From contig NC_057754.1 of assembly GCF_004010195.1 (NCBI RefSeq), forward strand, positions 10,015,562 to 10,079,561: a stretch of DNA of 64,000 nucleotides, read 5' to 3'. This document shows positions 1 through 62,630 of the stretch, piece after piece. Numbering within the stretch: the first letter of the stretch is position 1; every line of letters begins with the position of its first letter. Below the pieces are notes generated by a model. It was given only the letters and a program-made list of their open reading frames with translations. It searched no databases and was not told where the DNA came from. This stretch comes from Chiloscyllium plagiosum (Eukaryota). Position numbers and translations under genes: made by a program.

Positions 1-565
1 CCAGGATAGATATGTTATCCCAGTCGAAATGGTGTTTTTTTTCCTCCATGTGTAGGGCTATGAGGGAGAGAGGGTCGTGTCTTTTTGTGGCTAGCTGGTG
101 TTCGTGGCCAACTTTCTTCCTGTTTGTCCTACATAGTGTTTGTGGCAGTCCTTGCATGGAATTTTGTAGACGACATTGGTTTTGTCCATGGGTTGTACTG
201 GGTCTTTTAAGTTTGTTAGTTTTTGTTTGAGAGTGTTGGTGGTTTGTGTGCTACTAGGATTCCGAGGGGTCTTAGTAGTCCGGCTGACATTTCTGAAACT
301 TCTTTGATGTATGGTAAGGTGGTTAGGGTTTCTGGCTGTGTTTGGTCTGCTTGTCGTGGTTTGTTCTTGAGGAATCGTCTACAAAATTCCATGCAAGGAC
401 TGCTACAAACACTATGTAGGACAAACACAGGAGACAACAGCTTCGCTTCACTTGGAGGTCGCTACTGATGATGTTACCTAGCCAGGTAATGAAACGTCTG
501 GATAGCAAACCTACAGCTCACCGAGCAAACCTACACCCTAAACCTCAAACTGAGCTACAAACCTT
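1..565 (-). mobile_element. Penelope-like element (PLE) fragment: GIY-YIG endonuclease region plus inverted pLTR piece with hammerhead motif
   Basis: Minus strand reads TLPYIKEVSEM..RPLGILVAHKP, KIPCKDCHKHYVGQTGRKL and HHFDWDNISIL. 121-173 is an inverted copy of 375-427. Hammerhead core at 465-498. Confidence 0.85.
462..501 (+). ncRNA. Minimal type-I hammerhead ribozyme motif (PLE-associated)
   Basis: CTGATGA(465-471)-T-GTTACCT/agcc/AGGTAAT-GAAAC-GTC. ACGT palindrome at helix III; helix I is weak. Confidence 0.7.
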
Positions 566-574
566 CACAAACCT

Positions 575-3100
575 TGCATCCACCTCCTGCCTATAATGTG
601 ACAACCAGAATTGAGCACAATACTCCAAGTGTGACCTAACCAAAGTCTTATAAAGCTGCAACATGGCAACCTGACTTTTGTTCTCAATTCCCCAAGCAAT
701 AATGGCAGAAATACCATATGCTAATTTTATCATACTATCTACTTGCGAGCCACTTTCAGGGAGCTATGGACTTGAACTCTGTTCATCAGTACTGTGCAAG
801 GTCCTGCCATTAATAGAACATACAACAGTACAGCACAGTATAGGCCCTTCGGCCCTTGATGTTGTGCCAACCTTCTATCCTACTCTAAGATCAAACTAAC
901 CTACATACCCTTCATTTGACTATTATCCATATGCCTATCCAAGAGTCACTTAAATGTCCCTAAATCTGACTCTACTACCACTGCTGGCAGTGCATTCCAC
1001 ACACCCACCACTCCATGTAAACAATCTACCTCTGACATCTCCCCCAAACCTTCCTCCAATAAGCTTAAAATTACGCCCCCTTGTGATTTCCATTTCCCCC
1101 TGGGAAAAAGTCTCAGGCTGTCTACTCTATCTATGTCTCTCATCATCTTGTACACCTCTATCAAGTCACCTCTCATCCTTCTTCATTCTAATAGAGAAGC
1201 CCTAGCTCCCTCAACCTTTCTATGCCCTTCAATCCTGGCAGCATCCTGGTAAATCCTGTGCATCCATTCTAAAGCTTCCACATTACTGTATACTTTTCCT
1301 TAAAATTTGATTGCTCAAAGTGCCGCACCTCACACTTCCCCAGATTAATATTCATCTGCTATTTTCTGCCCATATTTATAACTCATCTGTATCCCTCTGT
1401 GTCCTTTGACAACCTTCTACACTATCCACAACTCCACTGATCTTTGTATGGTCTGCAAATTTACTAACCCATCTATCGACATTTTCATCCAAGTCATATA
1501 ATCCACAAACAGCACAGGTCCCAGTACAGTACAGATCCTTGCAGAACACTAGTCACAGGCCTCCAGCCAGAAAAAAACATCCTTCCACGACTACCCTCTG
1601 CCTTTTAAGGGCAAGCCAATTTTGAATCCACGCAGCCAAATCACCATGCATCTTAATTTTCTGAATAAACCTGCCTTATGGGACTTTGTCGAAAGCCTTA
1701 TTGAAATCCATGTAAGACAACTTCCACTGCTCTACCTTTACTTCCTCAAAAAAATTTAATCAAGTTCGTAAGACATGACCTGCCCTGCACAAAGCTATGC
1801 TGACCATGCCTAATTAGATTAGATTAGATTGGATTCCCTATAGTATGGAAACAGGCCCTTCAGCCTAACAAGTCCGCCCCGACCCTCCGAGTTAGGCTTT
1901 TTTATGCATTTAGATCCTATCCGTAAGAATTCTCTCCAATAGGTTCCCAACCACCGATGTGAGTCTCACAGCTCTGTAGTTGCCTCGATTATGTCTATTT
2001 CTTTTCTTGAACAGAGGAACATTCGCTACTCATCAGTCTTCTCTCCAGTGGCTAATGAGAATACAAAGATCTTGGAGAAAGTGAGGCCTGCAGATGCTGG
2101 ATTTCAGAGCCTGATGAAGGACTTATGCTCGAAACGCCCATTCTCCTGCTCCTTGAATGCTGCCTGACCAGCTGTGCTTTTCCAGCAGCACACTCTTTGA
2201 TACAAAGATCTTGGTCAAGGCCCCAACAATCTCTTGTCTTATCTACTCAAGTTGTTGAAAGAGACCATCGGACCCTGGCAGACATATCCGCCTCAATGTT
2301 CTGCAAGAGACTGAACACCACTTCTTTCTTGATCTCAAAATGCCCTCGCATATTAACATGCTCTGCACTAATCACACTATCCTCCATATCCTTCTGGGTG
2401 AATACCAACACAAAGTGCTCATTTAGGTTCTCATCTATATCTTCTGCCTCCAAACATAAATTCCCTCCTTTATCCTCGAGTGGTCCTACCTTCTCCCTAG
2501 TTATCCTTTTTTTTAAATATATGTATAGAATGCCTTGGGATTCTCTTTAACTCTACTTCCCAAGATGTCCCCTCTTTGCTCTCCAAATTCCCTGCTTGAG
2601 TCCTTTCCTGCTTTCTTTATATTCCTCACAGGCCTTACCTATTTTAACTTCCTAAACCTGACATATGTGCCTTTTTTTCCCTTTTGACTAAATCCACAAT
2701 GTCCCTTATGACCTTGCCATCCTTGTCCTTCCTTCTTGCTGGAACATGCCGGTCCTGAACTCTGATCAGCAGGCCTTTAAACAAATCCCAGACATCAACT
2801 GTGAACTTGCCCAATAATAGCTCCTCCCAATATTGGCATAATTTGCCCTCCCCCAGTTTAGTACCTTCCCTCAATGTACTGACTTATCCTTATTCATAGC
2901 TATCTTAAAACTGAAGGATTGTGATTGCTGTTTCCAAAGTGCTGTCTCACTGAAATGTCAGTCACCTGGCCTGGCTCATTAGCCAATACAAAGTACAGTA
3001 TGGCCCCTTTTCTGCTTGAACTGTCCATGCACTGTTTCAAGAAACCCTCTTAGATGCACTAGCAAATTCTGCCACATCTAAACCTCTTGCTCTAAGGGAG
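575..3100 (-). mobile_element. Decayed CR1 LINE ORF2 mosaic with nested CR1 3' end (~815-1260)
   Basis: Minus ORFs include LQLYKTLVRSHLEYCAQFW, MRGDLIEVYKMMR..VGVWNALP and LNEHFVLVFTQKD, all typical of CR1 RT or linker. Confidence 0.85.
2076..2199. mobile_element. Mini non-autonomous PLE with degenerate hammerhead and 15-bp TSD
   Basis: TSD ATACAAAGATCTTGG at 2061-2075 and 2200-2214. CTGATGAAGGACTTATGCTCGAAAC at 2111-2135. The two halves are in opposite orientation. Confidence 0.75.
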
Positions 3101-6909: not shown

Positions 6910-7878
6910 TCAGTCCTGAATGTGAGTAATAACAGAACCATATCCTTGCAGTCGCTCATGAACTCGTTGGTGTCTCCGCAGTCGGGATGAATCGATGAAT
7001 CTCTTTCCGCACTGAGAGCAGGTGAATGGTTTCTCCCCAGTATGAATTCGCTGGTGGACAATGAGGTAGTCGGACTGCTTGAACCTCTTGCCACAGTCAG
7101 CACAACTGAAAGGCCTCTCCTCGGTGTGACCTTGCTGGTGTCGCAGCAACGTAGCTGAACTAATGAATCCCTTCCCACACACAGAGCAAGTGAATGGCCT
7201 CTCCCCAGTGTGAACTCGCTGGTGTGTCACTAGCTGGGATGGCAGAGTAAATCCCTTCCCACACACTGAGCAGATGGATTGGCTCTCCCCAGTGTGAACC
7301 CGCTGGTGTGTTAGCAAGTGGGATTGCTGAGCGAATCCCTTCCCACACACAGAGCAGGGAAATGGTTTCTCCCCAGTGTGAAGTCGCTGGTGTGTCAGCA
7401 GGTGGCTTGACTGAGTGAATCCCTTCCCACATACAGAGCACGTGAATGGTCTCTCTCCGGTGTGAACTCGCTGGTGCATAACAAGGGTGCCTGAACGAGT
7501 GAACCTCTTTCCACAGTCCGTGCAGCTGAATGGCTTCTCCTCAGTGTGGATTTGCTGGTGTCTCAGTAAGGTGGTTGACTGACTAAATGCCTTCCCACAC
7601 ACAGAGCAGGCAAATGGTCTCTCCCCAGTGTGAACTCGCTGGTGTACAGTGAGTGCGCCTGAGTGCCTGAACCTCTTTCCACAGTAAGTGCAGCTGAAAG
7701 GCCTCTCCTCAGCATGCACTCGCTGGTGTGTCAGCAGGTTGGATGAATCAGTGAATCCCTTCCCACACACGGAGCAGGTGAACGGCCTCTCCCCAGTATG
7801 ACTGCGGCGATGTGTTTCCAGCTTTGATGGGGAAATGAATCCCTTTCCACAGTCGGCACATTTCCAAGGTTTCTCCAT
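6910..7878 (-). CDS. C2H2 zinc-finger protein ZNF-A, 322 aa, 11 tandem fingers, no effector domain
   Basis: Open ORF MEKPWKCADC... with 11 CxxC-x12-HxxxH units and TGERPF linkers. Candidate acceptor ccttttccag (minus) with the exon starting at 8177. Confidence 0.93.
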   Translation of the reverse strand: MEKPWKCADCGKGFISPSKLETHRRSHTGERPFTCSVCGKGFTDSSNLLTHQRVHAEERPFSCTYCGKRFRHSGALTVHQRVHTGERPFACSVCGKAFSQSTTLLRHQQIHTEEKPFSCTDCGKRFTRSGTLVMHQRVHTGERPFTCSVCGKGFTQSSHLLTHQRLHTGEKPFPCSVCGKGFAQQSHLLTHQRVHTGESQSICSVCGKGFTLPSQLVTHQRVHTGERPFTCSVCGKGFISSATLLRHQQGHTEERPFSCADCGKRFKQSDYLIVHQRIHTGEKPFTCSQCGKRFIDSSRLRRHQRVHERLQGYGSVITHIQD

Positions 7879-8892
7879 GCTATGGGTGTCCTGGTGTCTC
7901 TCCAGGTTGGATGATCAGTTGAAAGCTTGTCCACACACCAGTTTCTCAGCTACAAATCCAGTGATTTCGCTTTCAGGCTGCGTAACTGGTAAATGCTTTT
8001 CCTGCAATAAGTTCACTGGAACATTCTCACTCTGATCTGTGTTTTTCCAGTCACAATGATGTTAGAAATCTTTTCCCGCTGACAGATCAGATGTTGAACG
8101 GTAACGAGTATGTCCTGCTGACTCACTCAGACCTCAGATTCAAGTCTCCCATCATCTAATCCTCTTTCTTTAATACACTGGAAAAGGAGTCAGCATAAAG
8201 TCAGCAGTGAGTATAGGTTAGAAATTTAGAACAGAAATTTCAGTTTCTGTGGATTATTTTTTCTTTCTTGTTTCCCAAAGCTGTAAATCCCTATCCCAAT
8301 CGCTTCTCTCCTTCTGCTGAAATCCAAATAGTTTTGGGTTATTCTTTCTGAACTTTTTAACAAAATAATGTGCATCTACAGACAGCAATATGTTTGGAAA
8401 TTAACTTCAGTCAGTTATCATCACAAAACATTAATCTGATTCTCCTGAACTGACCATACAGAATAGCAGATGTTAGCCTCATAGTCGTATCTGACTGTGT
8501 GGAGAATTGTTTAAGGCACAAAAATAGGTCATTTAACCCATTTTGTCACTCTCTGAATGAGCATTCTGACATTGTGCTATTCTCCTGATTTTTCTCTATA
8601 ATCTTACATGTTGTTCCTATTCAAAAAAATGATCTAATGTCCTCGATTGAACCTGCCTAAATCTCAGTTCCATGCAATGTATTCCAGATCTAATCATAAG
8701 CTGTGCGAAGTTTCTAACACACAATTCGCTCGTTTGTACATTTGAAATCTGCGCTCTTGTTTGCGATGCTTTTATTAATGGGAACAGTTTCTCACTACCT
8801 AGCCATATCCTGCATGATTTTGAAAATTCCATTTAACCTCCTCTTAACTTTCTCTAACCTAACTTCATGACTGAAGTTGCTCACCACTTAAA

Positions 8893-10335: not shown

Positions 10336-10364
10336 ATTATCGAAATGCATCAAAAATAACACTT

Positions 10365-11102
10365 TGATGCAGAGATGCTGGTGTTGGACAAAAATCACAC
10401 CACACCGGGTTGTACTGCAACAAGCTTATTTGAAACTGTAAGCTTTTGGAGCCCCGCTCCTTCCTAAGGCAGCTAGTCTTCCCACCCATCCCCAGCTCGC
10501 TTTCCAGTCCCATGTCCTCCCTTCTATTTCACCTGCCGACCCTTCCTTCCAGCTAGGATTGCAGATGCTGGAGATTAGAGTGGTGCTGGAAAAGCACAGC
10601 AGGTCAGGTAGCATTCGAGGAACAGGAAAATCGTCTTTTCGGGCAAAAGCCCTTCATTAGGAATGAGGGCAGGGAGCCTCCGGGGTGGAGAGATAAATGG
10701 GAGGTGGGTGGGGCTAGGGAGAAGTAGCCAAGAGTACAATAGGTGGATGGAGGTGATAGGTCAAAGAGGCGGGTGGAATAGAGGACTGAGAAGGAAGATT
10801 GGCAGGTAGGCCAGGTCATGAGGATGGTGCTGAACTGGAAGGTTGGAACTGGAGTAAGGGGGAATGTGGAAACTGGTGAAGTCCACATTGATGCCCTGGG
10901 GTTGAAGTGTTCCGAGGCGGAAGATGAGGCATCAGGTGGTGAGGGAGTGGTAGTGGAGGCGGCCCTGGACCTGCATGTCCTCTGCAGAGGGGAGGTGAAA
11001 TGTTGGGCCACGGGGTGGTGGGGTTGATTAGTTCGGGTGTCCTGGAGATGGTCCTTAAAGCGCTCTGCGAGAAGGCGTCCAGTCTCCCCCCTGTAGAGGA
11101 GA
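10365..11102 (-). mobile_element. PLE 3' fragments with GIY-YIG tail and degenerate hammerheads
   Basis: Minus strand LIFRLGTLQPQGINVDF-like tail at ~10880-10930. Degenerate hammerhead CTAATGAAGGGCTTTTGCCCGAAA at 10637-10660. Confidence 0.7.
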
Positions 11103-14100
11103 CAAGTTACAAATCACACACCAGCAGGTTATAGTCCAACAGGTTTAACTGGAAGCACTAGCTTTCGGAGCGCCGCTCCTTCATCAAATGATTGTGGAGG
11201 ATACAATTGTAAGACACAGAATTTATAGCAAAAGTTTACAGTGTGATGTAACTGAAATTATAAACTAAAAAATACCTTGATTGTTTAAGTCTCTCATCTG
11301 TGAGATGACAGACTTAATTCTAACAGATGAGAGATTGAAAAATACCTTGATTGTTTGTTAAATGTATAATTTCCAATTAAATCTGTTGGACTATAACCTG
11401 GTGATGTGTGATTTTTAACTTTAAAGATATGAGATTAACGTCTGTCTGTATCCCAATCTTGACTCAGACTGGTTCTATTTCTGAAGTAGAATTTACAAGA
11501 TATTACATGGATTGACTGCCTGTCGATATGTATTTTTTAAGCAAAATACAAATGTGTATGCGAATATAATTCTGCAAATATAAATTCATCCCCTAAACGT
11601 ATATGTGCTTGTGCATGTGAGAGAGAGTGTGTTTGTGTGTGTACAAGCTTGGCAAAGTATGTGTGAGTGTGTTATGGGAGAATAAGCCTGTGAGAGGGTG
11701 CATGCATTAGTGCGAGTGTGGAGAGTGTAAATGTGTGCATGTGGGAGGGGGTCTGCACGAATGTGAGAGTATGAAAGTGTGTGTGTGTGTTTCTGTCTGT
11801 GGGAGAGAGTGTATAATGAACTGGGGTCACATATAATGTGAGCGGTTGAGACCATCCTAATGGGTACCAAACCTGGCTAAGCGCATCTGCTCGACTACTT
11901 TGCGTTGTTGCCTGTCCCGATGTCTGCCTTGGAGGATGGTCACCTGAAGGTCTGAGGCTAAACGTCCCTGATCACTTAAGTGTCCCCCAACTGAGAGGGA
12001 ACACCAGTGTTTGGGAACTATTGTGCAATGTCCACTCAACTGATGTCGTAGTATCTTCTTGGTCTCATCCATACACCATACCTCGGGGCATCCTTGCCTG
12101 CAACGTACGAGATAGACAACATTGGCCAAGTCACATGAATACCTGCCGTGTAATGGTGGCATCTGTGTCCACACTGACACATCTTGCAGTGGTTGCCATG
12201 ATAGTGTTGTGGTTGAAGGCTGGGCAGTTTGCTGTGAACAATGATTTGTTTAAGGTTTGGTGATTTTTTTTAAAAGGTGAGAAGTGGAGTCGTAGGGAAG
12301 GTCTTGGTGAGGTGTTCATTCTCACGTGTTGCAGGCTGTGAATGAGACTTCAGGAATTCTTTCAAGATGTCAACAGTAATCCCAATGAGGCAACTGACAA
12401 ACTAGAACAGTCATCACAGAGATCTGCACAGGCGTGACCAAAGGAGGAGTCAATTTGGACCCCACCGCAGGGCCGCTGCCCTGGGCTTGACATGTATGCT
12501 CAAACATAGTCAGCAAATGTGTAAATGCCAGGTTCATCAGCTGCACCCACAAGCAGAGCAATACTTCAGCCAATCACATCGCAATGCCATCCATGCTGTT
12601 AAAACCAAATTACAACATTGTCATCAAATCAGCAGATAAAGGAGAAGCCATTGTCATTCAGAATAGAACAGCCTACTGCAAGGAAATGTACCGACAACTG
12701 AACAACCGGGAACAGTACAGCAACTACTGGCCAATCCGACCAATGAACACACCCATGAACTAAACACACTGATGAAGACTTCTGATCCAGTCCGACAGGA
12801 TTCCCTGCGTGCTTTCATCCCATGTACTTCTCATGTAGGGGACTTCTACTGCATTCCGAAGATGCACAAAGCCAACACACCAGGACATCCCATAACAGGA
12901 AACGGGACCATGTGTGAGGACTTCTCTGGCTATGTCGAAGGCATCTTGAAAACCCATTGTACAAGGGACCCCCAGCTTCTGTCGCGACACTACAGATTTC
13001 TTATAGAAACTCAGTACCCACGGACCAGTCGAACCCAGAACATTCCTCATCACAATGGATGTTTCAGCACTCTACACCAGCATCAGGACAACATCCTCAG
13101 TACTCAATACCAACAACTGCCAATCTCTAAGCACTGTCCTACAACTCATCCGCTTCATCCTTGGCCACAATGTTTTCACCTTTGACAACCAATAGAACAT
13201 AGAACAGTACAGCACAGAACAGGCCTTCAGCCCACGATGTACTTCATCCAGACACAAGGAACAGCCATGGGATCAAATTTGCACCCCAATGTCAACATTT
13301 TCATGCACAGGTTCGAACAAGACTTCTTTTCTGCACAGGACTTCCAATCAACACTATACATCAGCTAATTGACAACATTTTCTTCCTCTGAACCCATGGC
13401 AAGGAGTCACTGAAACAACTACACAGTGATATCGAGTTTCATCCCACTATCAGACTTACCACGGACAACTCTTTAGTATCTGTCTCATTCTTGGACACAT
13501 GCATCTCCATCAAGGATGGGCACCTGACTTAACCACAAACCCATGAATAATGTCACGATGCTACACTTCTCCAGCTTCCACATATCAAAACAGCCATCCC
13601 CTACAGACAAGCCTTATGCATACAGAGGATCTGTTCAAATGAGGAGAAACGTGACGGACGCCTGAAAGTGTTCAAGATGCCCTCATAAGAACAATGTACG
13701 ATTCTCAAGGCAGACATCGGGACAGGCAACAACGCAAAGTGACCGAGCAGAGGCTGATAGCCAGGTTCAGTACCCATTGGGATGGCCTCAACCGGTCACA
13801 TTACAAGTGACCCCAGTTCATTATACACTCACAGACAGAAACACACACACACACTTTCATACTCTCACACTCATGCAGACCCCCTCTCACATGCACATAT
13901 TTACACTCCCCATACTCACACTAATGAATGCACCCTCATCAATCACCAGTTCGAACATGCCAGAGTGAGAAACCATAATGAACTCCTCAGGAGCTGGGCA
14001 CAGGTTGCAACCGATAGGGTATCCTTTGTTGTCCAGTACATCCCGGGAGCCGAAAAACTGTACCATCTTCGCAGCCTGCAACACATTATCAATAAGGACG

Positions 14101-15067
14101 AACAACTTGCTAAGATCTTCCCTACACCTCCACTTCGCGCCTTTAAACAACCACCAAACTTTAAACAGATCATTTTTTGCAGCAAACTGCCCAGCCTTCA
14201 GGACAACATCGACCACAACATTGGACAGCCCCATCACAGCAACCACTGCAAGACATGCCAGATGGTCGATGCAGATACCACCATTACATGGGAGGACACC
14301 ATCCACCATGTACGAAGCAGGTACTCATGTGACTCAGCCAACATTGTCTACCACATATGATGCAGGCAAGGATGCCCCAAGGCATGGGACATTGGCGAGA
14401 CCAAGCAGACAACGTACAACAATCACTAGACAATGGTGTTACCTCCGAGTCGAGGAACACTTCAGTGGTCAGGGACATTCGGTCTAAAACCTTCAGGTGA
14501 GCATCCTCCAAGGCAGACTTCAGGACAGACAACTACGTAAAGTGATCAAGCAGAAGCTGATAGCCAAGTTCAGTACACTGAGGATGGCCTCAACTGGACC
14601 TTGGCAACAAGCATGTCACACTACAGGTGACCCCACTGCATTGTGTACGTACACACACACACGCACAGACCTTCTCTCATACACACACATATACATGCCC
14701 CACATTCACATCCACGCATGCACCCTCTCACAGGATTATACCCCATCATACACACACTTTACCAAACTTGCACATACTCTCTCACATGCACTCACACGTG
14801 CACACACAAATGCACACTCACTGTCTCTTTGTCCTACGTGCATGCGCACACACATTAAAGTTCATATTTGCAACATTATATTTGCATATACATTCTATTT
14901 TGCTCAAAAAATACTTAACCTACAGGCAGTCAATCCATGTAAGATCTTGTAAATTCCACTTTAGATATAGAACCACTCTGACTCAGGATTGGGACACAGA
15001 CTTTCACCTCACCCCTTTAATGCACTAACAAACCCATTCTAAAAGATGAAAGACTTAATCTAGTTCA

Positions 15068-15525
15068 AAGTTTGTGAGAAGATTTATAGCTCGGGTGCTC
15101 GTTGTTGTGGTTCTGTTCGCTGAGCTGGGAATTTGTGTTGCAGATGTTTCGTCCCCTGTTTTGGTGACATCCTCAGTGCTTGGGAGCCTCCTGTGAAGCG
15201 CTTCTGTGATCTTTCCTCTGGCATTTGTAGTGGTTTGAATCTGTCGCTTCCGGTTGTCAGTTCCAGCTGTCCTTTGCAGTGGTTGGTATATTGGGTCCAG
15301 GTCGATGTGCTTGTTGATTGAATCTGTGGATGAGTGCCATGCCTCTAGGAATTCCCTGGCTGTTCTCTGTTTGGCTTGTCCTATAATTCAAACCACTACA
15401 AATGCCGGAGGAAAGATCACAGAAGCGCTTCACAGAAGGCTCCCAAGCACTGAGGATGTCACCTAGACAGGGGACGAAACGTCTGCAACACAAATTCCCA
15501 GCTCGGCAAACAGAACCACGACAAC
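15068..15525. mobile_element. Second-family PLE end nested in the large PLE: inverted pLTRs around a GIY-YIG tail
   Basis: 15101-15240 and 15386-15525 are inverted copies. Between them the minus strand reads IGQAKQRTAREFLEAWHSSTDSINKHIDLDPIY. Confidence 0.85.
15447..15486 (+). ncRNA. Minimal type-I hammerhead ribozyme motif, intact core
   Basis: GCA-CTGAGGA-T-GTCaCCT/agac/AGGgGAC-GAAAC-GTC-TGC. Helix I GCA/TGC, palindromic ACGT helix III, GUC cleavage triplet. Confidence 0.8.
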
Positions 15526-16089
15526 TTAATTTGTCTTGTTCAACATATAATTTCAGCTGCATTACACTGTTCTTTTGCTATAAATTCTGTGTCTTAAGAT
15601 CCTGCTTCACAACCACCCAATGAAGAAGCAGCGCTTCGAAAGCTAGTGTCTCTAAATAAATTTGTTGGACTATAACCTGGTGTTGTGTGGTTTTTAACCC
15701 TAAAAGTTGACATCCCCACTTCCTGATGTTGCTGTGTCTGATCAGGATATGGACCAGTTAGGTGAAAGGTTCGGTCTGTCCTCAAGGCACAGTGGGGAAA
15801 GACCACAACCTAAGGTCATTATGCTGAAGTTAAATTCGATTATCAGACCATCTGCTGTCTCAAATATATGTCAATATAATCTTGTCCAACTAAATGCTCA
15901 GTTGCAAAGGTTCATTTGCTGGATATAGTCACGTTCCAATTTTTTTTATCCATGTGCTACTGTACAGAACCAAACTGCTTTAGTGACTATGTATGTATAC
16001 AACGATATTTTTTATGAAGGCGGCCAATTTTTAGTGTGTATGATGGGGTTGCCAACTATAGGGCTTTATAAGCATTAGAAACAATACTC

Positions 16090-16720: not shown

Positions 16721-17689
16721 TGGAGATACTTCAGAGGAATTTACTAGATTGATTCCAGGGATGAGGGGTTTATCTTATAAAGAGAGTTTGAGCAATATAG
16801 GCCAATTCACTCTGGCATTTAGAAGAATGCGAAAGTGGATTGATGAAAGATTGACAGGTTTAGGGATGGAATATCAGAGTGGCAATGCCAGTATTGACTC
16901 CTTACAATCAGAGGATCTAAGGAGTTCACAATGAAAGGAAGACTAGTATCTCAGGGCAAGTAAGTAGAGACAATTGAGGTAGAGAGTAACACAGCCAAAT
17001 GTTCAAATATCACAGAGAGGGTGTGACTGGATATTACAAAGGGGTAAAAACAGAATTTCTTTTTCTGCAGAAACACAGAAGGTTTGGCAATATCTGTGGA
17101 GAGAAAGCAGAATCAACATTATGGCTTCTTCAAGATAGGAAGGGAGGAACATGGGCAAGACATCAGCTATCTCAAACAGTGACCAACTGGAAATGAGAGA
17201 TGGGGAGGGGCATGGCCAGATGTGAAATTATCACAGAGAGCGAGGGATTGGAGGTTAGGTGATCAGGAGGGATGAAGCCAAGGAGGGATTTGTCAACCAG
17301 GATGCAAATTTTCAAATTTGGACATGGTTCGGTCAGGAGACAATTTAGTCAGTGACGGCAGAGGTGAGGTTGAATAGGTTTTGGTACACAACGAGCAGAC
17401 TTTGAATAACCTCACATTTCTGGGTCAGGATGGATTGAGTATGAACTGGAATCAAATCTCAAGGTAATATAAAGCCCTTGAAAGATGAGCTATGATGGAC
17501 TGCCAACAGATGCTGTCATGTAGCTAGAAAGTTCCGGTGTTCGGTATGGTGTGGGAATGTGGCCAAGAACACATCTGCAATGACAGTGAGAGGTGTTCAA
17601 AAAGGAATGGAGGTGAGTATAGGCACAATGTGTTTCCTTTAGGGCAAAATGTTGTAGCACAAGCCCAGAGAACCTTGGATGTCTATGAA

Positions 17690-19610
17690 CGTTCAGGACT
17701 GGATAAAAAGAAAAATAGAGTACAAAAAATACAAAGGGTGCAAATCAACAGAGGTCATAGTACTGGGCTGTGAGTGCATTGAGGAGACAAACAGAGGGAA
17801 TGAGAACACTTGCAGGCAGGATTTGGAAGAATCCTAAGCTGTTCTGCAAATATCTCAAGAGGAAGATAATATCCATGGAAACAGTAGGGCCCATTAGCGA
17901 CCACAGGGTAAATCTGTGTATAGCCGCAGAGGACATCAGTGGTGTTAAATGAATACTTCACAACTGTTTTCACTCAGATACATGCAGGCACAGAATTTGA
18001 AAGGTTTGGCGATGAAGTTCTTGAGCAGATTGATATAGGGGAGTGAAGCGGTTGTGAAGGTTTTAGCAGATTTAAAAGTGAACAAATCCCCAGGTTCAGA
18101 CGAATTGTATTCCAGGCTGCTGTGGAAGACGAGGGAAGAAATCACAGGGGCTCTGGCTGCAGAGGGATGCCAGAGAACAGGAGGACAGATAATCTGATTC
18201 CCACCCTTCTTGAAAAGTTAAGATAAACCCCAGGAAAGTACAGACCAGTGAATCTCACATCATTTGTAGGGAAACTGTTGGATAAAATTCTGAAGGAGAG
18301 AATTTATCTTCAGTTAAAGAAGCAAGGTTGGATCAGAAAGAGCCAACATGGCTTTGTCAGAAGGTGGTCATGACTAACAAATCTGGTCAAATGTTTAGAA
18401 GAGATGCACAAGTGTATTGATGAAATTGATGTAGTTTGCATGGATTTCAACAAACCCTTTTTACAAGTTTCCATGTGGGAGACTGATAAAAAAAATTGGC
18501 AGCATGGCGGAAGACAGAAGGCTGTTAGTGTGACTACAGTCCAGTGTGCAATGGTATGCCATAGGAATCAGTATTGAGTTTGTTATTGTTCGTGATATAC
18601 GTCAACGATATGGATAATAATGTCGGGAGGATGACACAAAGATTTTGAGAAAGTCTTTGACAGTGAGGAAGAAGGTTTTGGGTTACAGGATTGGTCTGAT
18701 GGATAGATTAATGGCAGATGGCATTTAATCCAGATACATGTGGGGTGATGCACCTTGTAAGTAACATGACAATGGAGTACTCAACAAATGGCAGAACAAT
18801 AAGAAGCTCAGAGGTACAGAAGGATCTTGGGTGCTTGTCCATAAATTCCTGAAGATGGCAGCACAGATGAATAGGGTTGTTAAGGTCACTTGTGTTTACT
18901 AGTTGAGGCATAAGAGTAGGGAGGTTATGTTGGAGCTGCACAGAACTTTGGTTAGGACACAGCTGGCATACCTTGTGCAGTCTGGTGACCACACTATGGG
19001 AAGAATTGCACTGAAAAGGGTGCGGAGGAGATTCACCAAAATATTACTCAGGATGTAGCGTTCAGTTATGAAGAGAGGCTGGATAAGTTCAGGTTGTTTT
19101 CTTTGGAGCAGTGAAGGTTGAGGGGGAACCTCATTAAGGTTTACAAGAACGAAGGGAATACACACAGCAAACAGAAAGCAGCTGTCCCTTTCATCTAAAG
19201 GTCATTGATAAAGAGGGCATCATTTTAAGATGAAAGGCAGAACATTTAGATGAGATTTGAGGAAAATGTTTTCACCAAGAGCGTCGTAGGGACCTGGAAT
19301 ACACTGCTTCACAGGGTAGTTGAAGTGAGGTAAATCTCATGACCTTTCAAGTATTTGGATGAGCACTTGAAATGCCAAGTCTGTGGGCCCAGTGCCTAAA
19401 AGAAGGACTAGTAATAGATTAGTTGAGCTTTGGTAGTACAGGGAGAAAGTGAGGACTGCAGATGCTAGAGACCAGAGTTGAAAAATGTGGTGCTAGAAAA
19501 ACACAGCAGGCCAGGCAGCATCTGAGGAGCAGGAGAATCGACGTTTCGGGCATAAGCCCTTCTTCAGTACAGACTCAATAGTTTTTCTGCACTGTATGAT
19601 TCTCATCATG
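17690..19610 (+). mobile_element. Decayed CR1 LINE ORF2
   Basis: LAGRIWKNPKLFCKY, LNEYFTTVFT, DLKVNKSPGSDELYSRLL and YRPVNLTS motifs, running on to the CR1 3' end. Confidence 0.85.
19442..19567 (-). mobile_element. Mini PLE with intact hammerhead core and 7-bp TSD
   Basis: Minus strand CTGAAGA-A-GGGC/ttat/GCCC-GAAAC-GTC at 19567-19540. TSD AGTACAG at 19435-19441 and 19566-19572. Confidence 0.8.
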
Positions 19611-20663
19611 TACAGCAAAGGAGAAGATAATTAGGAAACAGAATTTTGAGTGGTAACTGAAGACATCAGCTTTTTCTTCCAATGGTTAGCAGGAGGAATT
19701 GCTGCTTATCCAGCTCTGGAACCAACAGTCTAATAATTGAACAATAGTAGAAAAATGGAGAGGTGGGACAGGGAGTGAGTAGGTAGAGATAGATGTGTGA
19801 AATCTAATGCAAGGCTTTGGATTATGCCACATAGTAGCATTGTATGGATAAGAAATAGGAGAGCCAAAGATAAATCCCTTCAATCATAAATTTTACAATA
19901 TAGGTGTCCATTTCAACCCACTGTGTCTGTACCAACTCCCAAAAGAGCTACCCAGCTAGTTCCATTTTCCAGCCCTATCTCTGTAGCCATCTAACTTCAT
20001 CCCTTTCAAACATATCCAGCTGTCTTTTGAAACTTCCTGTGGAATCCATCTCCACCACTCTCTCAGGCAGCACATTCAAAATCCTAACAACTCCAAGTAA
20101 AGAAATCTCTCCTCATCTCACTTCCTGCTGTCTTGCTGGCAATCTTGAATTGTGACCTCTCATTACTGACATATCACAGAGTGGAAGCAGAATGTCCTTT
20201 TTCAAACCGTCAAAATTGTTGATAATTTTGAAAACGTCAGTAAGGTCATGTCTTAATCTTCTCTGCTCCAAGGAGAATAAGACAAATTTCTCTAATCTTT
20301 CCTTGAATCTAAAATTCCTCATTCCTGGTATCATTCTAGTGTATTTCCTTTGCATTCTTCCCAGGATTTTAACATTGTTCATTAAATAAAGTGCCCTAGA
20401 ACCGAATACTCCAAATGTGGCCTGACCAATGATTTGTCGACCTGTAGCATCACGTCCTTTTTCTATACTCTTTCTCCTAATAATTAACCCAAAGATCCCA
20501 TATACCCTCTTAAAAGCTGTTTCAACTTGTTTGACCACCTTCAGAGAATTGTACACTTGAACCCTGACACTCCTGGATGACACTCAAAGTTGTATCATTT
20601 AACCTGCTTATCTCTCCATGTTTCTCCTTCCAGAATGCATTACCTCACATTTCTTTGCATTGA

Positions 20664-20974
20664 CCTATCTGGGCAAACATGACACTATTGTTAAAGTTCA
20701 CTTTAGAATGTAACTTTTTAAAAAAGTTTTGCAATTTACATATGAGAGAACTGAAACCAACATGGTCATTCGAAACGATGAGAGACTTCACAAACAATCC
20801 AGGTCTTTTTCAATATATAATTTCAGTTACATCACACTGTAATTTTTTGCTATAAATTCTGTGTCTTACAATCTTATTCTCCACAACCACCTGATGAAGG
20901 AGCAGCACTCCGAAAGCTAGTGCTTCCAAATAAACCTGTTGGACTATAACCTGGTGTGGTGTGATTTTTAACCC
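20664..20974 (+). mobile_element. PLE pLTR-derived insertion with intact hammerhead
   Basis: Homologous to the large PLE 3' end (15030-15700). TSD TGCATTGA at 20656-20663 and 20975-20982. Confidence 0.8.
20888..20922 (+). ncRNA. Minimal type-I hammerhead ribozyme motif
   Basis: CAC-CTGATGA-A-GGAG/cagca/CTCC-GAAA-GCTA-GTG. Helix I CAC/GTG, palindromic AGCT helix III, CUA triplet. Confidence 0.75.
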
Positions 20975-23527: not shown

Positions 23528-23699
23528 GTTCAAAATCCAATGTTATTCAGGCTACAATGAATTGGATGACTCAGTCAGATCTCGAAGCGATGTTTGGTTT
23601 AAGTTTCCTCACTGCAAATCGTCCCCTTCAAACACCCTGTGAAACTGGTTGAAAACAGAATAAAGGAAGTGAGAGAGAACCCAGACAAAAATGAGATTA

Positions 23700-33482: not shown

Positions 33483-34483
33483 GCAAAAGTGAGAGAAAAG
33501 CAAATTACTTCAGATGCTGGAATCTGAAACCAAAAGAGAAAATGCTGGAAAATCTCAGCAGGTCTGGCAGCATCTGTAAGGAGAGAAAAGAGCTGACGTT
33601 TCGAGTCTAACTGACCCTTTGTCAAAAGCTCGAAACGTCAGCTCTTTTCTCTCCTTACAGATCTGAAAAATGTGTTGCTGGAAAAGCGCAGCAGGTCAGG
33701 CAGCATCCAAGGAGCAGGAGAATCAATGTTTCGGGCATAAGCCCTTCTTCAGGAATCTGACCTCAGGACCTGAAGAAGGGCTTATGCCAGAAACGTCAAT
33801 TCTCCTGCTCCTTGGATGCTGCTTGACCTGCTGCGCTTTTCCAGCAACACATTTTTCAGCTCTGATCTCNNNNNNNNNNNNNNNNNNNNNNNNNNNNNNN
33901 NNNNNNNNNNNNNNNNNNNNNNNNNNNNNNNNNNNNNNNNNNNNNNNNNNNCATCCAAGGAGCAGGAGAATCAATGTTTCGGGCATAAGCCCTTCTTCAG
34001 GAATCTGACCTCAGGAGAGGTCAAATTTTCCAGCATTTTCTCTTTTGGAGGCAAAAGTGAGGACTGCAGATGCTGGAAATCAGAGTCTAGATTAGAGTGG
34101 TGCTGGAAAAGCACGGCAGGTCATGCAGCCTGACCTGCTGTGCTTTTCCAGCGCCACTCTAATCTAGACTCTGATGGTCAGGCGAGGCAAGCCTGAAATG
34201 GAGCAGTGGAGTGTGCTGCGTGTAAATGCTGTTCTCTTGCAAAAAGGAGTTTCTGGACTCCATCCCTGTCAGCCCAGGACTATCTCTGAGTGTGTGTGTG
34301 TGTGTACTGGACCCTGGAATGGCCTACATTCCCCTGGAGCAGAGAGCGGCTTGGGACACAGGGAAGGGCCTGTGCCCGAAACGTCGAATCTCCTGTTCCC
34401 TGGATGCTGCCTGACCTGCTGTGCTGTTCCAGCAATAAAGTTTCAACTTTGATCTCCAGCATCTGCAGACCTCACTTTCTCCT
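33483..34483. mobile_element. Cluster of palindromic mini-PLEs with hammerhead-like motifs, spanning an assembly gap
   Basis: Inverted arms 33572-33605/33629-33662, ~33663-33753/33769-33859 and 34080-34123/34131-34174. Another copy at 34365-34483. Confidence 0.8.
33870..33951. other. Assembly gap (82 N)
   Basis: Run of N. 33952-34016 duplicates 33704-33768. Confidence 0.99.
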
Positions 34484-35560: not shown

Positions 35561-35719
35561 AAGGTTTGTCTGTTGTGTTTGCAGGCTGAGATTTCACTGT
35601 CAATGGAAAAGCCCCGAGAGATTTATAATTCTACCCAGGGTAGCCCTGGAGGATGCATCCAGCTCTGGAGAAGTCAGCTCGCCAACGTCCCAGAGGACTG
35701 CAGAGTGACCATTGGTTAG

Positions 35720-36330
35720 AGATAAAAAAGAACTGCAAATGCTGGAATCCAAGGTAGACAGGTAGGAGGCTGGAAGAACACTGCAAGCCAGGTAGCATCA
35801 GTGGTGGAGAAGTCATATGTTTTGGGTGTAACCCTTCTACTGGACTGGGGGTGGATATAAGGGGAGCTGCAGATAAAGGTGGGGAGGAAATGAGGAGTCA
35901 GGTAGTGATAGGTGAACATAGGTAGACGGTATGACCTGATTGGTCGATGGAAGGAATGAATCCAGTATGGTGGCTTAAATAAAGTGTCGACCAGAGGAAT
36001 GTAAGAGAGGGGGAGGGACTGGGAAGGGAGGTTATTTGAAATTGGAGAGCGTAATGTTGAGTTCTCTGGGCTGTAGGTTGCCCAGGTGAAAGATGAGGCA
36101 TTGTTCCTCCAGTTTGTGGTCTCATTTGTTGTGGCAATGGAAGAGGCCATGGATGGTCATGTCGGAAAGGGAGTGGGAAGGGGAATTAAAATGGGCAGTG
36201 TCTGGGAGGTCAGGTAAGGGGAGGCCTGCGTGCCCAGCTGAGATGCTTGGCGAAATATGCTGAGTTTATGTTTGGAATCCCCGATGTAGAGAAGACCACA
36301 TCAGGAGCACCAGATACAGGGTGACAACAC
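35720..36330 (-). mobile_element. PLE 3' fragment (GIY-YIG tail and pLTR)
   Basis: Minus strand EEQCLIFHLGNLQPRELNI tail. Terminal motif related to the mini-PLEs. Confidence 0.7.
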
Positions 36331-39573: not shown

Positions 39574-39838
39574 GTTCAAAGTTTGTGAGAAGATTTTAGC
39601 TCGGGTGCTCGTTGTTGTGGTTCTGTTCGCCGAGCTGGGATTTTGTGTTGCAGACGTTTTGTCCCCTGTCTAGGTGATATCCTCAGTGCTTGGGAGCCTC
39701 CTATGAAGCTTCACAAACGTCTGCAACACAAATTCCCAGCTCGGCTGATGAAGCTTTTGTCCGAAAGGTCGATTTTCCTACTCCTCGGATGCTGCTTGAC
39801 CTGCTGTGCTTTTCCAGCACCACTCTAATCTAGACTTT
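39574..39838. mobile_element. Composite PLE pLTR fragments (two families) with degenerate hammerheads
   Basis: 39574-39710 matches 15063-15200. A short inverted piece at 39715-39744 is followed by a mini-PLE arm CTGATGAAGCTTTTGTCCGAAAGGTC. Confidence 0.75.
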
Positions 39839-40230: not shown

Positions 40231-40473
40231 GCGTTTTCCTCTGTGGAGACCCGTCTCTTGTGTAATCCTGACGAAGGTTCCCTTCACTGAAGGTTGATAC
40301 TGGTTGGTTTTTATAACGAATGGCACTTTTCATCCCACTTTCTCATATTTTAAATCATTTTTGCAGAGAATTTAAAAGAGGATTTACAGAGAAGAAGCTC
40401 AAATCAAACATCAAATCAAGACCTGACAGAGACAGTCGACTCACCAGGAACTTAATATCGTTGCCCGTTGACC

Positions 40474-45021: not shown

Positions 45022-45199
45022 CCATGATGTGGGGATGCTGGTGATGGACTGGGGTGAACAAAGTCAGACATCACACAATGCTAGGTTATAGTCCAATAGG
45101 TTTATTTGAAGTCGGGTGAAGGAGCAGCACTCTGAAAGTTTGTGATTTCGATTAAACCTGTTAGACTATAACCTGGTGTCATGTGACTTCTGACTTTTT
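45022..45199. mobile_element. Palindromic mini-PLE with 10-bp TSD
   Basis: TSD CCAAATGTAG at 45012-45021 and 45200-45209. Arms ~45061-45110/45146-45197 surround a degenerate hammerhead. Confidence 0.78.
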
Positions 45200-56290: not shown

Positions 56291-56314
56291 AAATTCCGTG
56301 TCAGTATTGCTCAC

Positions 56315-56954: not shown

Positions 56955-58810
56955 TCAGAGTCATAGAGATCCACAGCAGAGACAAAGACCCTTCTTCCTA
57001 ATGCATCCATGCCAATCAAAACAATGACCTAACTACTCTAATCTCATCTTCCAGCACATGGCCCTTTGCATATTCCTTGCCATGACAAGTGCACGTCCAA
57101 ATACTTTTTAAAAAGAGTCATAGAGATGTACAGGACGGAAGCAGACTCTTCAGTCCAACTCGTCCATGCCAACCAGATATCTCAACCTAATCTGGTCCCA
57201 TTTGCCAGCACCTGGCCCATATCCCTCTAAATCCTTCCTATTCATATACCCATCCAGATGCCTCTTAAATGTTGCAATTGTACCAGCCTCCACCACGTCC
57301 TCTGGCAGCTCATTCCATAGACACACCACCAGCTGTGTGAAAAAGTTGCCCCTTAGGTCCCTTTTATATTTTTCCCTTCTCGCCCTAAATCTATGTCCTC
57401 TAGTTCTGGACTCCCCCACCCCAAGGAAAAGACCTTGTCTATTTGTCCTATCCATGCCCCTCATGTTTTTATAAACCTCTATAATTTTATGAAGATTTCT
57501 GCCTCTACCACCCTTACACACAGTGAATTCCAGATTCACACCATCCTCTGTGCGAAAAATCTTTCCTAACATCTCTTTCAAAACTTCTGCCCTCTAGTTG
57601 ACATCATTGCCCCCTCATCATTGATCCCTTCATCAAGGGGAAATGTTTCTTCCTGCCTAATTTGCCAATACCTCTCATAATTGTCTACATCTCAGTCATG
57701 TGCCCTCTCAATCTCCTCTGTTCCAAGGAAAATACCTCCAAGTTTTTCCAACCTCTATTCATAACTGAAACTCTCCAGTCCAAGCAACTTCCTGGAAAAT
57801 CTCCTCTGCACCCTGTGCGGTTCTATCACACCCCTCCTACATTGTGGATTCCATAATGCCACACAATACTTCAGCTGCGGCCTAATTACAGTTCCAAAAT
57901 AACCTCCCTTCTCCTAATCTCAATGATGAGGAGCTGCTGTTAATCTGGAGTGGACAAAGTTAAGACTCACACAACACCAGATTATAGTCCAACAGGTTTA
58001 TTTGGAAGTACTAGCTTTCAGAGTGCTGTCCCTTCGTTAGGTAGCTGGTACTTACAAATAAACCTTTGGACTATAACCCGGTGTTCATAGAGTCATAGAG
58101 ATGTACAGCACGGAAACAGACCCTTCGGTCCAACCCGTCCATGCCGACCAGATGTCCCAACCCAATCTAGTCCCACCTACCAGCACCCGGCCCTCTTTCC
58201 CCATACTTATGCCCTTGAGTTCTGGACTCCCCGACTCCAGGGAAAAGACTTTGCCTATTAACCCTATCCATGCCCCTCATAATTTTGTGAACCTCTATAA
58301 AGTCACCCCTCAGCCTCCGACGCTCTAGGGAAAACAGCCCCAACCTGTTCAGTCTCTCCCTATAGCTCAAATCCTCCAACCCTGGCAAATTCCTGATTTT
58401 TAACTTAATCTCAATGCTTCAGCCAGTAAGGGCAAGCATACCAATGCCATCTTTATTACTTCATTCACCTGTCCTGATACCATAAGAGGCCAGTGTATGT
58501 GCACACCAAGGTCCCTCTGATCCTGGTGCTTCCTTTACTGCTCATCCTTTACTTCCTTAGTCCTGCTCAAGTGCATCAGCTCACATTTATCCTGATTGAA
58601 TTCCATTTGCCACTGACCAGCCTGGGCTGTATCCTCCTATAATTTAAGGCTATCCACTATTTACCACCTACTGATTTTTGTATCATCTGCAAACTTACTG
58701 ATCAAACCTACCTACATTCAAGTCTAAATAATTTATTCAAACCACAAATAGTAAGCGTCACAATTTGGGCAAGTGTGGGACCCTACTGGATACAAGCTTC
58801 CAGTCAGGAT
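56955..58810 (-). mobile_element. Nested CR1 3' fragments (young copies at 57115-57485 and 58086-58388)
   Basis: GESRTRGHRF..RDLRGNFFTQ..WNELPE motifs and (TCATAGAG)n tails. Confidence 0.85.
57926..58405. mobile_element. Palindromic mini-PLE (11-bp TSD) later split by a CR1 insertion
   Basis: TSD TAATCTCAATG at 57915-57925 and 58406-58416. Arms ~57958-58010 and 58048-58085 plus 58392-58405. Confidence 0.75.
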
Positions 58811-60703: not shown

Positions 60704-60739
60704 GCTCCTGTATCCATAACATCAGCAAAGGAATACAAT

Positions 60740-62630
60740 AAACAAAAGCAAAAGATGAAGTACAAAAGGAAACTAGCAGAAAGCCTAAGCATTAATACCA
60801 AAGTCTTCAGCAAGTATATATAAAAGCAAAGAAAATAGTGAAATCAAATGTCGACCCAAAAATGGCAAGTAACAATGGGGAAACTCAGCACAGTGGCACT
60901 CTTAACAATATTCTGTCTCTGTTTTCACAGTGGAAGATAATAACTTCTTCCCAAAAACTGCAGTCACTACAGAGGAACTTGTGAAATTACTATAACAAGG
61001 GACAAGGTATTAAGTAAACTGATGGGATTAAAGACAGGTAAGTCCTGGGCCCTGATGGCCTGCACTCCAGGGTATTAAAGGAGATAATGGATGCATTAGT
61101 TATGACATTCCAAAATTCCCTCGATTCTGGAAAAGTACCAGTGGCTTGGAAACATGCTAATGCGATACACTTATTCAGAAAAGGAGAAAGCCAAAAAGTG
61201 GGAAGTGACAAACCAATTAGTTTGACCTCAGTCGTGGGAAGTCACTGGAGTCAATCATAAAGTAGGAGTTGACTGAACACTTGGAAAAACAAAGCTCAAT
61301 TCATGGGTGTCAGCACGGTTTCATGAAGGGCACATCATGCTTGACAAATTTGCTAGAGTTATTCGAGTTGTAACCAGCAAAGTGAATAACAGCGATGTGA
61401 TATATCTGAACTTCCAGAAGGCATTTGACAAGAGGCCACATCAAAGACTGATCCAGAAGGTCAGATCTCAGGGTTGTTAAGGTAGAGCATTAGCTTGGAT
61501 AGAGGATTGGCCGATCGACAGAAAGCAGAGGTTCGAGATAAACGGGTCCTCCTCTGGATGGTGAGCTGTTAGTAGTGGGGTGCCGTAATGCTCAGTTCTT
61601 GAACCTCAACTATTTACAATCTATATAAATGATCTGCAAACTGGGAAAGAATGTAACGTAGGACAATTCAAAGACACTACGACAATAGGTGGGAAAGTCG
61701 GTTGTGATGAGGAGATAGAGTTTACAATGGATATCGCTAGGTTTGGAGAATGGGCCTGAATCTGGCAGTTTGAGTTGAATGTGGATAATTGCGAGGTTGT
61801 CCATTTTGGCCAGAAACATAAAACAGCAAATTGAAATGAGAAGCAGATTCAAAGTGTGTCAGTGCAGAGGGATCTGGATGTCTTTGTGCATGAATAAAGG
61901 TGCAGCATATAAGGAAGGCAAATAGAGTTTTGGCATTTATTACAAAAGGACTGGATTATTAAAGCAAACACATTTTGCTACAATTGTATAAGGCATTGGA
62001 GTAGTGTCCAGTTTTGTTCTCCTTACTTCAGGAAGAGTGTGGTGGCACCAAAGGCAGTTCAGAGGAGGTTTGCAAGATTGATTTCCGAAAATGAAAGGCT
62101 GTCCTCTGAGGAACAGTTGAATAGCTTGGGATTGTACCCACGGGAGTTGAGAAGAATGAGGGGAGATTTGATTGAGATATATAGAATCCTAAAGAGGTGT
62201 GATAAGGTGGAAATTGAACACAGGCTCCCCCTTGTGGGACAGTCTCAAACAAAGTTAAAAATCACACAACACCAGGTTATAGTCCAACAGGTTTAGTTGG
62301 AAGCACACTAGCTTTCGGAGCAACACTTCCAATTAAACCTGTTGGACTATAACCTGGTGTTGTGTAATTTTTATCTTTGTACACCCCAGTCCAACACCCG
62401 CATCTCCAAATCAGTCTCAAACAAGACATTATAGATTTCCAGTGAGAGGAGGTAGGTTCAAAACTGAGATGAGGGTTATAAATCTGTGAAATTCACTGCC
62501 ACAGAGTGGAAGCAGAATCAAACTACAGGTTCAAGAAAGAGATAGAGACGTTTGTGATGAAAAGCAGGATAAAGAGCTTTGGGGAGCAGGTCAGGGGAGT
62601 GTTGAGACCAGGCTAAGATCAACCATGATG
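60740..62630 (+). mobile_element. Decayed CR1 ORF2
   Basis: KSWALMA/GPDGLHSRVLKE region, YLNFQKAFDK, AVQRRFARLI..RMRGDLIEIYRILK. Confidence 0.85.
62253..62411. mobile_element. Palindromic mini-PLE with 13-bp TSD
   Basis: TSD CAGTCTCAAACAA at 62240-62252 and 62412-62424. ~50-bp inverted arms at 62251-62303/62326-62378. Confidence 0.85.

Follow-up and report, generated by a model that had tools for sequence, protein, structure and literature searches.

The analysed window, a stretch of 64,000 nucleotides of shark DNA, contains 21 sites with an intact, decayed or truncated minimal type-I hammerhead motif, which fall into six sequence families (A-F), five of them adjoining remnants of Penelope-like elements (PLEs). 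The element remnants, arms and stubs are:

2..452, minus strand: Poseidon-type RT-linker/GIY-YIG remnant that continues past the window edge (tblastn P0012/P0015, E 5e-37 and 2.7e-06)
2076..2199, plus strand: family A stub with motif 2111, U16.1 changed, without helix I, with a short inverted tail and a perfect 15-bp target duplication
10555..11101, minus strand: family A copy with GIY-YIG end (11101-10869), 3' UTR and decayed motif 10660 (tblastn P0024, E 1e-13; phmmer)
11106..12342, minus strand: inverted 5'-truncated copy of the Neptune-type element that follows, with family C motif 11187 (U3.G8 mismatch) at its end
12500..15702, plus strand: decayed Neptune-type element with RT and GIY-YIG remnants (12500-14577), 3' UTR and family C pLTR with decayed motif 15617
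15060..15387, minus strand: family B arm, the end of a Poseidon-type ORF (15387-15163, 88% to P0012) leading into motif 15176
19442..19567, minus strand: family A stub that lacks helix I but keeps an intact core, helix II and palindrome; target duplication of 7 bp
33494..34047, no strand assigned: palindromic family E insertion with a 14-bp target duplication and nested family A arms 33752(-), 33770(+) and 34000(-)
34364..34482, plus strand: family A stub whose truncation point lies within the core, with a 12-bp target duplication
35715..36214, minus strand: family F, GIY-YIG end (36214-36038), then a heavily decayed motif at ~35842 (tblastn P0024, E 4e-17)
39593..39835, no strand assigned: family B arms 39686(-) with G12A and 39715(+), then family A copy 39745(+)
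45022..45197, no strand assigned: family C palindromic stub, ~12-bp target duplication with 1 mismatch
57945..58085, no strand assigned: family C palindromic stub, motif 58040(-) with G5A
62253..62411, no strand assigned: family C palindromic stub with a one-sided tail, perfect 13-bp target duplication, core 5' half absent

Families A, B, C, D and F lie in sense orientation and downstream of PLE endonuclease remnants, labelled GIY-YIG on the basis of motifs and weak TIGR01453 matches (E 0.015-0.035). The original prediction spoke of at least three PLE families; six sequence families were distinguished. The endonuclease ends 210 nt (family A) and 200 nt (family F) upstream of the motif, and the Poseidon-type ORF of family B terminates at motif 15176(-), in which a CpG change has broken the palindrome. 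The RT and endonuclease remnant 12500-14577, whose element is interrupted further downstream by the family B insertion, and the inverted copy 12342-11106 both end in family C motifs; the former matches P0003 over RT and endonuclease (tblastn), and P0003 gave an RVT_1 match at E 3e-10. An inverted piece of the remnant at the window edge, 371-451(+), leads into the family D motif (blastn 375-427 versus 121-173: 98%). For the endonuclease piece of family A, a word-based homologue search yielded 0 of 3 candidates, and phmmer later found 9 homologues. A C-x4-CxxC linker is present in P0003 and P0024, and a linker of the form CX2-5CxxC in the 14229 region; families B and D were classified as Poseidon-type because P0012 has no Zn-finger linker. 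All ORFs of these elements in the window are broken, and a Pfam scan of 11 window ORFs gave no useful match. Family E has no ORF remnant within the window and is probably a PLE as well, because it is similar to family A downstream of the motif. Together, these data support an assignment of the motifs to PLE pLTR minimal type-I hammerheads of Poseidon or Neptune type. Truncation of the 5' end, inverted pLTRs, tails and target duplications were all observed among the window copies, with target duplications of 7-15 bp at 6 insertions. On either side of an 82-N gap stand 65 identical bases that contain arms 33752(-) and 34000(-); the two arms may represent a single copy duplicated by the assembly.

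Four motifs are complete in core, palindrome and both helices:

462..501, plus strand: family D, helix I 3 bp, core 465-471, extra U, helix II 7 bp, ACGU palindrome; predicted cut between 498 and 499
15447..15486, plus strand: family B, helix I 3 bp, helix II 6 pairs and one A.G mismatch, ACGU palindrome, within the inverted arm 15386-15526; predicted cut between 15483 and 15484
20888..20922, plus strand: family C, helix I 3 bp, helix II 4 bp, AGCU palindrome, within a solo 3' fragment (~20690-20972); predicted cut between 20919 and 20920
33593..33627, minus strand: family E, truncated copy with the core variant U3-A8 instead of C3-G8, helix I 2 pairs, helix II 5 pairs

A strict descriptor of the minimal type-I hammerhead (CTGAnGA, one extra nucleotide, stem II, GAAA and NUH) gave 5 matches in the 64-kb window, versus a mean of 0.13 and a maximum of 1 in 30 dinucleotide shuffles. 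When at least 2 bp of helix I were demanded, 4 strict matches were obtained and none in 30/30 shuffles. Tolerating one mismatch raised the number to 16 (shuffle mean 4.0), or 9 if helix I was demanded as well (0.63 in shuffles). A chance origin of the motifs is excluded. The noted recurrence of the core was confirmed and lies far above chance; confirmed as well was the combination of a palindromic helix III (ACGT or AGCT) with one extra nucleotide after A9, present in 5/5 strict matches. The catalytic core CUGANGA/GAAA/UH in type I order was unchanged at 10/21 sites; 6 of these also kept the palindrome, and 4 both helices in addition (465+, 15450+, 20891+ and 33625-). The register of this census is approximate for three heavily decayed sites (10469, 45114 and 35842). 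None of the four complete motifs has a complete same-strand partner of its own family within the window. Positions 15.1-16.1 are palindromic without a loop 3, ACGU in families A, B, D and E and AGCU in C, and all 5 strict matches have the unpaired nucleotide between 9 and 10.1. The pair 10.1-11.1 is G-C in four families and G-U in the single D copy; helix I measures merely 2-4 bp.

Among the copies first listed as intact, 465(+), 15450(+) and 20891(+) are complete, whereas in 19567(-) only core and stem II are intact: the 5' truncation falls at the core, the bases upstream of it are part of the target duplication of 7 bp, and 0 pairs are left in helix I. The coordinates given for degenerate copies hold, but 34372 and 45115 lack CTGAnGA and are copies cut off inside the core 5' half, while 33770 and 39745 kept the core letters with a broken stem II, shortened in 39745(+). 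That list had overlooked the complete motif 33625(-), the arm 34000(-) and the degenerate or truncated 10469(-), 35842(-) and 62337(-). Standard annotation misses the motifs, as anticipated: 0 hammerheads were among the 9 Rfam matches at E<=1 in the window. Rfam miRNA-type matches at the palindromes 33567-33669 and 34084-34198 were dismissed as hairpin artefacts. Two pattern scans of metagenome contigs gave 0 matches.

In structure-anchored comparison across five families, 42/45 stem cells were paired versus 26.6 in shuffled controls, and 0/20000 shuffles reached this value, a count biased upward because the stems were drawn on the same sequences and the families A/E and B/D are related. Compensatory changes occurred at 15.2-16.2 (C-G/G-C) and at 3-8 (C-G/U-A), in agreement with the pairing of stems expected across families. 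Stem sequences have nothing in common between these families, which nevertheless retain the 11 catalytic positions, the 3-8 pair and the palindrome. Within families, non-CpG mismatches were 6/110 in the core versus 27/522 elsewhere (p=0.82; a small test with 11 copies and a total of 7 core mismatches). Since the core decays like the flanks, most copies are probably fossils. For A, B, C and D, the hammerhead fold without helix III was 1.4-4.3 kcal/mol less stable than the predicted minimum; for the E copy the difference was 13.9 kcal/mol. Minimum-energy folds of dimers, which do not model the core, did not yield the hammerhead dimer.

In one raw RNA run (X19), reads ran through the three predicted cuts and formed no pile-up of read ends there; the poly(A)-primed library is poorly suited to reveal cleavage. 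Run X20 contributed only 2 reads. Among the rows listed for the contig runs X1, X5 and X7, a type of data that does not reveal ends, no poly(A) end was present. Read depth in X19 was higher in the ribozyme sense than in antisense, ~190 versus 32 for family B and 1772 versus 427 for family C. Family C showed one further feature downstream of its complete motif:

20929..20968, plus strand: poly(A) signal of family C, AATAAA at 20929-20934, addition at ~20947-20949, GU-rich tract downstream

Loose ends of 720 and 958 reads (X19) marked the addition site at ~20947-20949, and loose ends of 52 reads the equivalent place at 15675. RNAs of family C are polyadenylated ~28-30 nt past the predicted cut, behind A(A/U)UAAA. 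Tentatively, and at rather low odds, the hammerhead and the working poly(A) signal of this family might form one switch of 60 nt: a cut 28-30 nt before the poly(A) site would detach the tail from the element RNA and from any host mRNA ending in a copy, and the 3' product of the cut could sometimes serve as template. The latter would explain why some family C arms start 4-5 nt past the cut. If true, a ribozyme that removes poly(A) tails would have spread across many loci.

The observations are best explained, at a probability of about 0.88, if the motifs are the pLTR ends of six PLE families, each with a minimal type-I hammerhead motif, and most of the window copies are likely dead 5'-truncated insertions whose motif decays neutrally. 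By analogy to known PLEs, tandem-array RNA of an active parent would be cleaved 3' of GUC or CUA once two motifs have paired via the 4-nt palindrome of helix III; this cleavage is expected to be weak and probably aided by the protein of the element. Reverse transcription would begin 50-110 nt past the 3' side of the motif and end early in many cases. The motif would consequently be copied more than any other part of the element and accumulate as short stubs; the density of motifs would therefore reflect the mechanics of insertion, not selection on each copy.

The short stubs with target duplications could instead be self-propagating non-autonomous elements, retrozyme- or SINE-like, that are copied from their own cut RNA. 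Many copies are indeed ~110-160 nt long and flanked by target duplications of their own, PLE pLTRs are the source of retrozymes (bioRxiv 10.64898/2026.07.22.740005, in the part examined), and three of the family C arms start 4-5 nt past the predicted cut. However, the 5' ends scatter from -143 to +21 around the cut; copies starting exactly at the cut were looked for and rejected, with 0/22 ends at +1. Head-to-tail motif arrays were absent from the 20 largest repeat families listed and from the census, longer A, B and C copies continue into ORF sequence, and a tRNA head is missing (0 tRNA genes). Such an origin is unlikely.

Still less probable is a large pool of working ribozymes among the dispersed copies, cutting host transcripts in trans or as heterodimers via the ACGU palindrome. 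Four complete motifs in 64 kb, the predominance of ribozyme-sense RNA from families B and C in X19 and an ACGU common to A, B, D and E would suit such a pool, but core conservation does not exceed that of the flanks, reads cross the cuts without pile-up, and helix I, which in a dimer forms between the partners, differs between families. Minimal hammerhead ribozymes (min-HHRs) were moreover inactive as monomers and weak as dimers in the examined part of PMC4209133. Of the very large numbers of ribozymes originally proposed, the copies are indeed very numerous; a working population is not supported, given 4/21 complete sites, the lack of complete same-strand partners, core decay at the rate of the flanks and read-through. 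A chance likeness, or a motif retained without catalysis as a hairpin for protein binding or RT pausing, can hardly be correct: helix I is short, the predicted minimum is a fold other than the catalytic one and Anolis ribozyme mutants still insert, but the shuffles exclude chance, catalytic positions, 3-8 pair and palindrome persist while stems differ between families, and Anolis core mutants abolish cleavage, which a double mutant partly restores (PMC11167929, in the part examined).

After the PLE reading preferred here, the motifs belong to a known kind. Min-HHRs in the pLTRs of metazoan PLEs were described by Cervera & de la Pena in 2014 (PMC4209133), and the examined part of that work already reports one additional nucleotide following A9, the palindromic helix III, the U3-A8 variant, high copy numbers and dimers that cleave weakly; all structural features listed in the original prediction were present there. 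The families in the window share with these min-HHRs type I order, lack of loop 3, palindromic 15.1-16.1, a single nucleotide separating 9 from 10.1, a G10.1-C11.1 pair, a short helix I, the U3-A8 variant, several families per genome and an occurrence mostly as solo copies or as pairs on opposite strands, spaced 100-700 bp; that study includes fish elements of the Poseidon and Neptune types. They differ in their origin from a shark, none being named in its text or supplementary data examined, in a helix II of only 4-5 bp in families A, C and E, and in the poly(A) signal of family C, which the text examined does not describe for any element. In the literature searched, covering few subscription papers and Repbase/Dfam entries, no description of shark PLE hammerheads or of a PLE poly(A) signal was found.

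Families B and D resemble the Poseidon element PAc of Anolis carolinensis with its pLTR hammerhead (Frangieh et al. 2024, PMC11167929, seen in part). Public data of PAc likewise held no RNA reads ending at the cut. Protein-assisted cleavage was demonstrated in vitro for PAc and was dispensable for insertion in vitro, whereas the families here are known from sequence and RNA reads. Inverted pLTRs and a tail of 30-40 bp were reported for Neptune/Nematis-type EN+ PLEs (Craig et al. 2021, PMC8557442, seen in part), and the window copies agree in the C-x4-CxxC linker (P0003, P0024), the inverted 5'-truncated copy in 11106-15702 and the one-sided tail at 62253-62411. Unlike those PLEs, all ORFs here are broken; the window elements may be of Neptune or of Nematis type. 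Non-LTR retrozymes carry type I hammerheads related to PLE pLTRs, with one chondrichthyan reported as carrier (PMC7229834; bioRxiv 10.64898/2026.07.22.740005, both in part). Retrozymes form head-to-tail arrays, whereas the window copies occur singly or inverted and continue into PLE ORFs; head-to-tail tandem hammerhead units were absent from the window. The small-stem-III hammerheads of Lunse, Weinberg and Breaker (RNA Biol; cited via PMC6765202, seen in part) are likewise PLE-associated with a palindromic stem III, and for these dimer cleavage is reported. The natural covariation (C3-G8/U3-A8, ACGU/AGCU) can be used for a better search model, Rfam missing every copy. The cellular role of PLE hammerheads becomes testable with the very many dated copies of the shark and the poly(A) site beside the family C motif, one handle being the histogram of 5' ends relative to the cut site. 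The motifs are real, of the kind described in 2014, and extend this published class to bamboo-shark-like genomes.

The window was searched with a descriptor in type I order: a 3-8 pair, UGA, A9, zero to two extra nucleotides, a stem II of at least 4 bp, GAAA, a paired 15.2-16.2 and UH. Five exact matches were obtained (465+, 15450+, 19567-, 20891+ and 33625-), whereas 30 dinucleotide shuffles averaged 0.13 and never exceeded 1; with a helix I of 2 bp demanded, four real matches stood against none. The original prediction of intact motifs thus held for 465+, 15450+ and 20891+, while 19567(-) has lost helix I to a truncation of its copy at the core, and 33625(-), which carries U3-A8, had been overlooked. 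Profile searches and a census extended the set to 21 sites that retain the core region wholly or in part: ten had an unchanged core, six of these also the palindrome of helix III, and four were complete. An 82-N gap separates the sites 33752 and 34000, which may represent a single duplicated copy. An Rfam search of the window gave no hammerhead match. Judged by sequence, the motifs work like, and belong to, the minimal hammerheads of Penelope-like elements (PLEs) in every testable feature; their cleavage is predicted.

Six sequence families (A to F) were separated, A with the stem GGGC/GCCC. Families B and D resemble each other at the motif, while A, E and F have the downstream sequence in common. 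Carrier elements were assigned as follows, the clade names (Poseidon- or Neptune-type) following the linker criterion in PMC8557442.

15387-15163(-): family B, Poseidon-type ORF end, 88 % to the database protein P0012, continuing into motif 15176(-)
15450(+): family B motif on the inverted arm of the 15176(-) ORF-end copy
Family D motif: preceded by part of a second Poseidon-type remnant in inverted orientation
12500-14577: family C, decayed ORF for RT plus endonuclease, C-x4-CxxC linker present; past the nested B insertion the element terminates in motif 15617(+)
12342-11106: inverted 5' copy of the family C element, terminating in motif 11187(-)
Families A and F: endonuclease ending about 200 nt upstream of the motif, matching the skate protein P0024 (E 1e-13 for A, 4e-17 for F)

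P0024 is itself related to the family C-type protein (E 5e-21). No ORF was found in the window for family E. Among 15 intervals searched, target duplications of 12-15 bp surrounded five, and one of 7 bp the 19567 stub. The stack at 10387-15702, composed of a C-like stub, a family A copy, an inverted Neptune-type element and a nested Poseidon-type palindrome, is consistent with PLEs inserting in or next to PLEs. At 33494-34047 a family E palindrome encloses family A arms; 65 identical bases flank both sides of the 82-N gap, which suggests an assembly duplicate. Old fragments akin to families A/E, with no recognisable core, lie at 26040-26131(-) and 17062-17132(-). Part of the family B ORF end is also carried by the annotated Chiloscyllium isoforms of MAP3K7 (P0013) and NT5DC1 (P0014), with 93-96 % over a 46-aa query; either exonisation or a gene-model artefact would account for it.

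As predicted, stem II varies between families yet pairs. Stems change while the fold is retained, with pairing in 42 of 45 cells, compared with 26.6 for shuffled 3' letters (0 of 20000 shuffles reached 42), a count biased because the stems were drawn on the same sequences and some families are kin. Compensatory pairs were C-G/G-C at 15.2-16.2 and C-G/U-A at 3-8. Within families, 11 copies without indels were compared, CpG counted apart: non-CpG mismatches were as frequent in the core (6/110) as elsewhere (27/522, p=0.82), and CpG sites outside the core gave 14/71. A fold retained between families, together with core decay like that elsewhere within them, argues that selection likely acted on parent elements rather than inserted copies.

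In X16, a contig run of unrecorded kind, 94,714 contigs aligned to 19400-21050 at 85 % likeness. Summed depth reached about 8.8 million at motif A and 7.0 million at the C end, whereas unique bins had about 39; these depths are not a copy number and indicate only very many copies.

RNA was represented by X19, one poly(A) single-cell run (raw reads, about 2 % read), which covered family A, B and C sequence. One family C feature was in use there.

20929-20968(+), also 15655-15695: poly(A) signal of the family C terminal repeat (pLTR), about 28-30 nt past the predicted cut

Among 6,957 aligned reads an A tract followed 20946 in 720 and 20949 in 958, 12-15 nt past AATAAA (20929-20934) and upstream of a GU-rich tract, where the DNA is not A-rich; the ends listed for a DNA-like run included no A-tract end at these positions. 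At the equivalent position 15675, 52 of 1,080 X19 reads had an A tract, and AATAAA or ATTAAA was present in 8 of 11 family C copies. The result comes from a single sample, and most reads possibly derive from few host genes; one junction at 20879 was common to 596 reads.

No position with many read starts or ends was found in X19 across families A, B and C, and at the family B predicted cut the depth passed smoothly from 185 to 163. A poly(A)-primed library would lose both the untailed 5' product and the 30-nt 3' product. For this reason the missing pile-up is compatible with cutting; X19 shows the presence of uncut RNA. In the Anolis element likewise no reads ended at the cut, according to PMC11167929. 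Reads of family C revealed, at 20919 and 15645, subfamilies with a GT insertion immediately 3' of the cut site, and others with CUU for CUA, extending the palindrome to AAGCUU.

The alignable starts of 22 copies lay between -143 and +21, counted from the predicted cut, none of them at +1. Three of ten family C copies, the short arms 62326(+), 11371(+) and 45111(-), started at +4, +5 and +4 (post hoc binomial p ~0.02), only a hint. Fold-back joints listed for X16 included 20912, 20925, 20927, 20928 and 20934.

Other window content comprised LINE remnants, numerous short repeats and C2H2 zinc-finger genes, the latter as a cluster with 84-nt repeats:

6910-7914(-), 22322-23542(-), 30225-30347 and 40456-41451(+): C2H2 zinc-finger gene cluster

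The nearest proteins were from Chiloscyllium, Hemiscyllium and Scyliorhinus, which marks the genome as carpet-shark-like. A 31-nt tandem repeat with CCAAT/ATTGG-like words (34819-35107), near a GC-rich stretch, is possibly a promoter.

According to PMC4209133, helix III forms when two motifs pair via the palindrome; monomers did not cleave and dimers cleaved weakly. The helix III energies calculated here were only -2.5 (ACGU) to -3.4 (AGCU) kcal/mol at 25 C. A dimer partner within one transcript cannot come from an inverted arm, which lies on the opposite strand. In Anolis, according to PMC11167929, cleavage required the element's protein and was dispensable for insertion in vitro, and reverse transcription initiates internally and sets the tail. 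By extension from both papers, the tandem transcript of the parent would be cleaved 3' of GUC or CUA; copying would initiate just 3' of the motif and stop early, leaving stubs and inverted arms.

No account of shark PLE hammerheads was found in the literature searched, with supplements partly covered; a 2026 preprint (bioRxiv 10.64898/2026.07.22.740005) covers one chondrichthyan. The 2014 paper (PMC4209133) already contains the extra nucleotide, the palindrome, G10.1-C11.1, U3-A8 and the family diversity, as well as pairs on opposite strands and copy numbers in the thousands per vertebrate genome.
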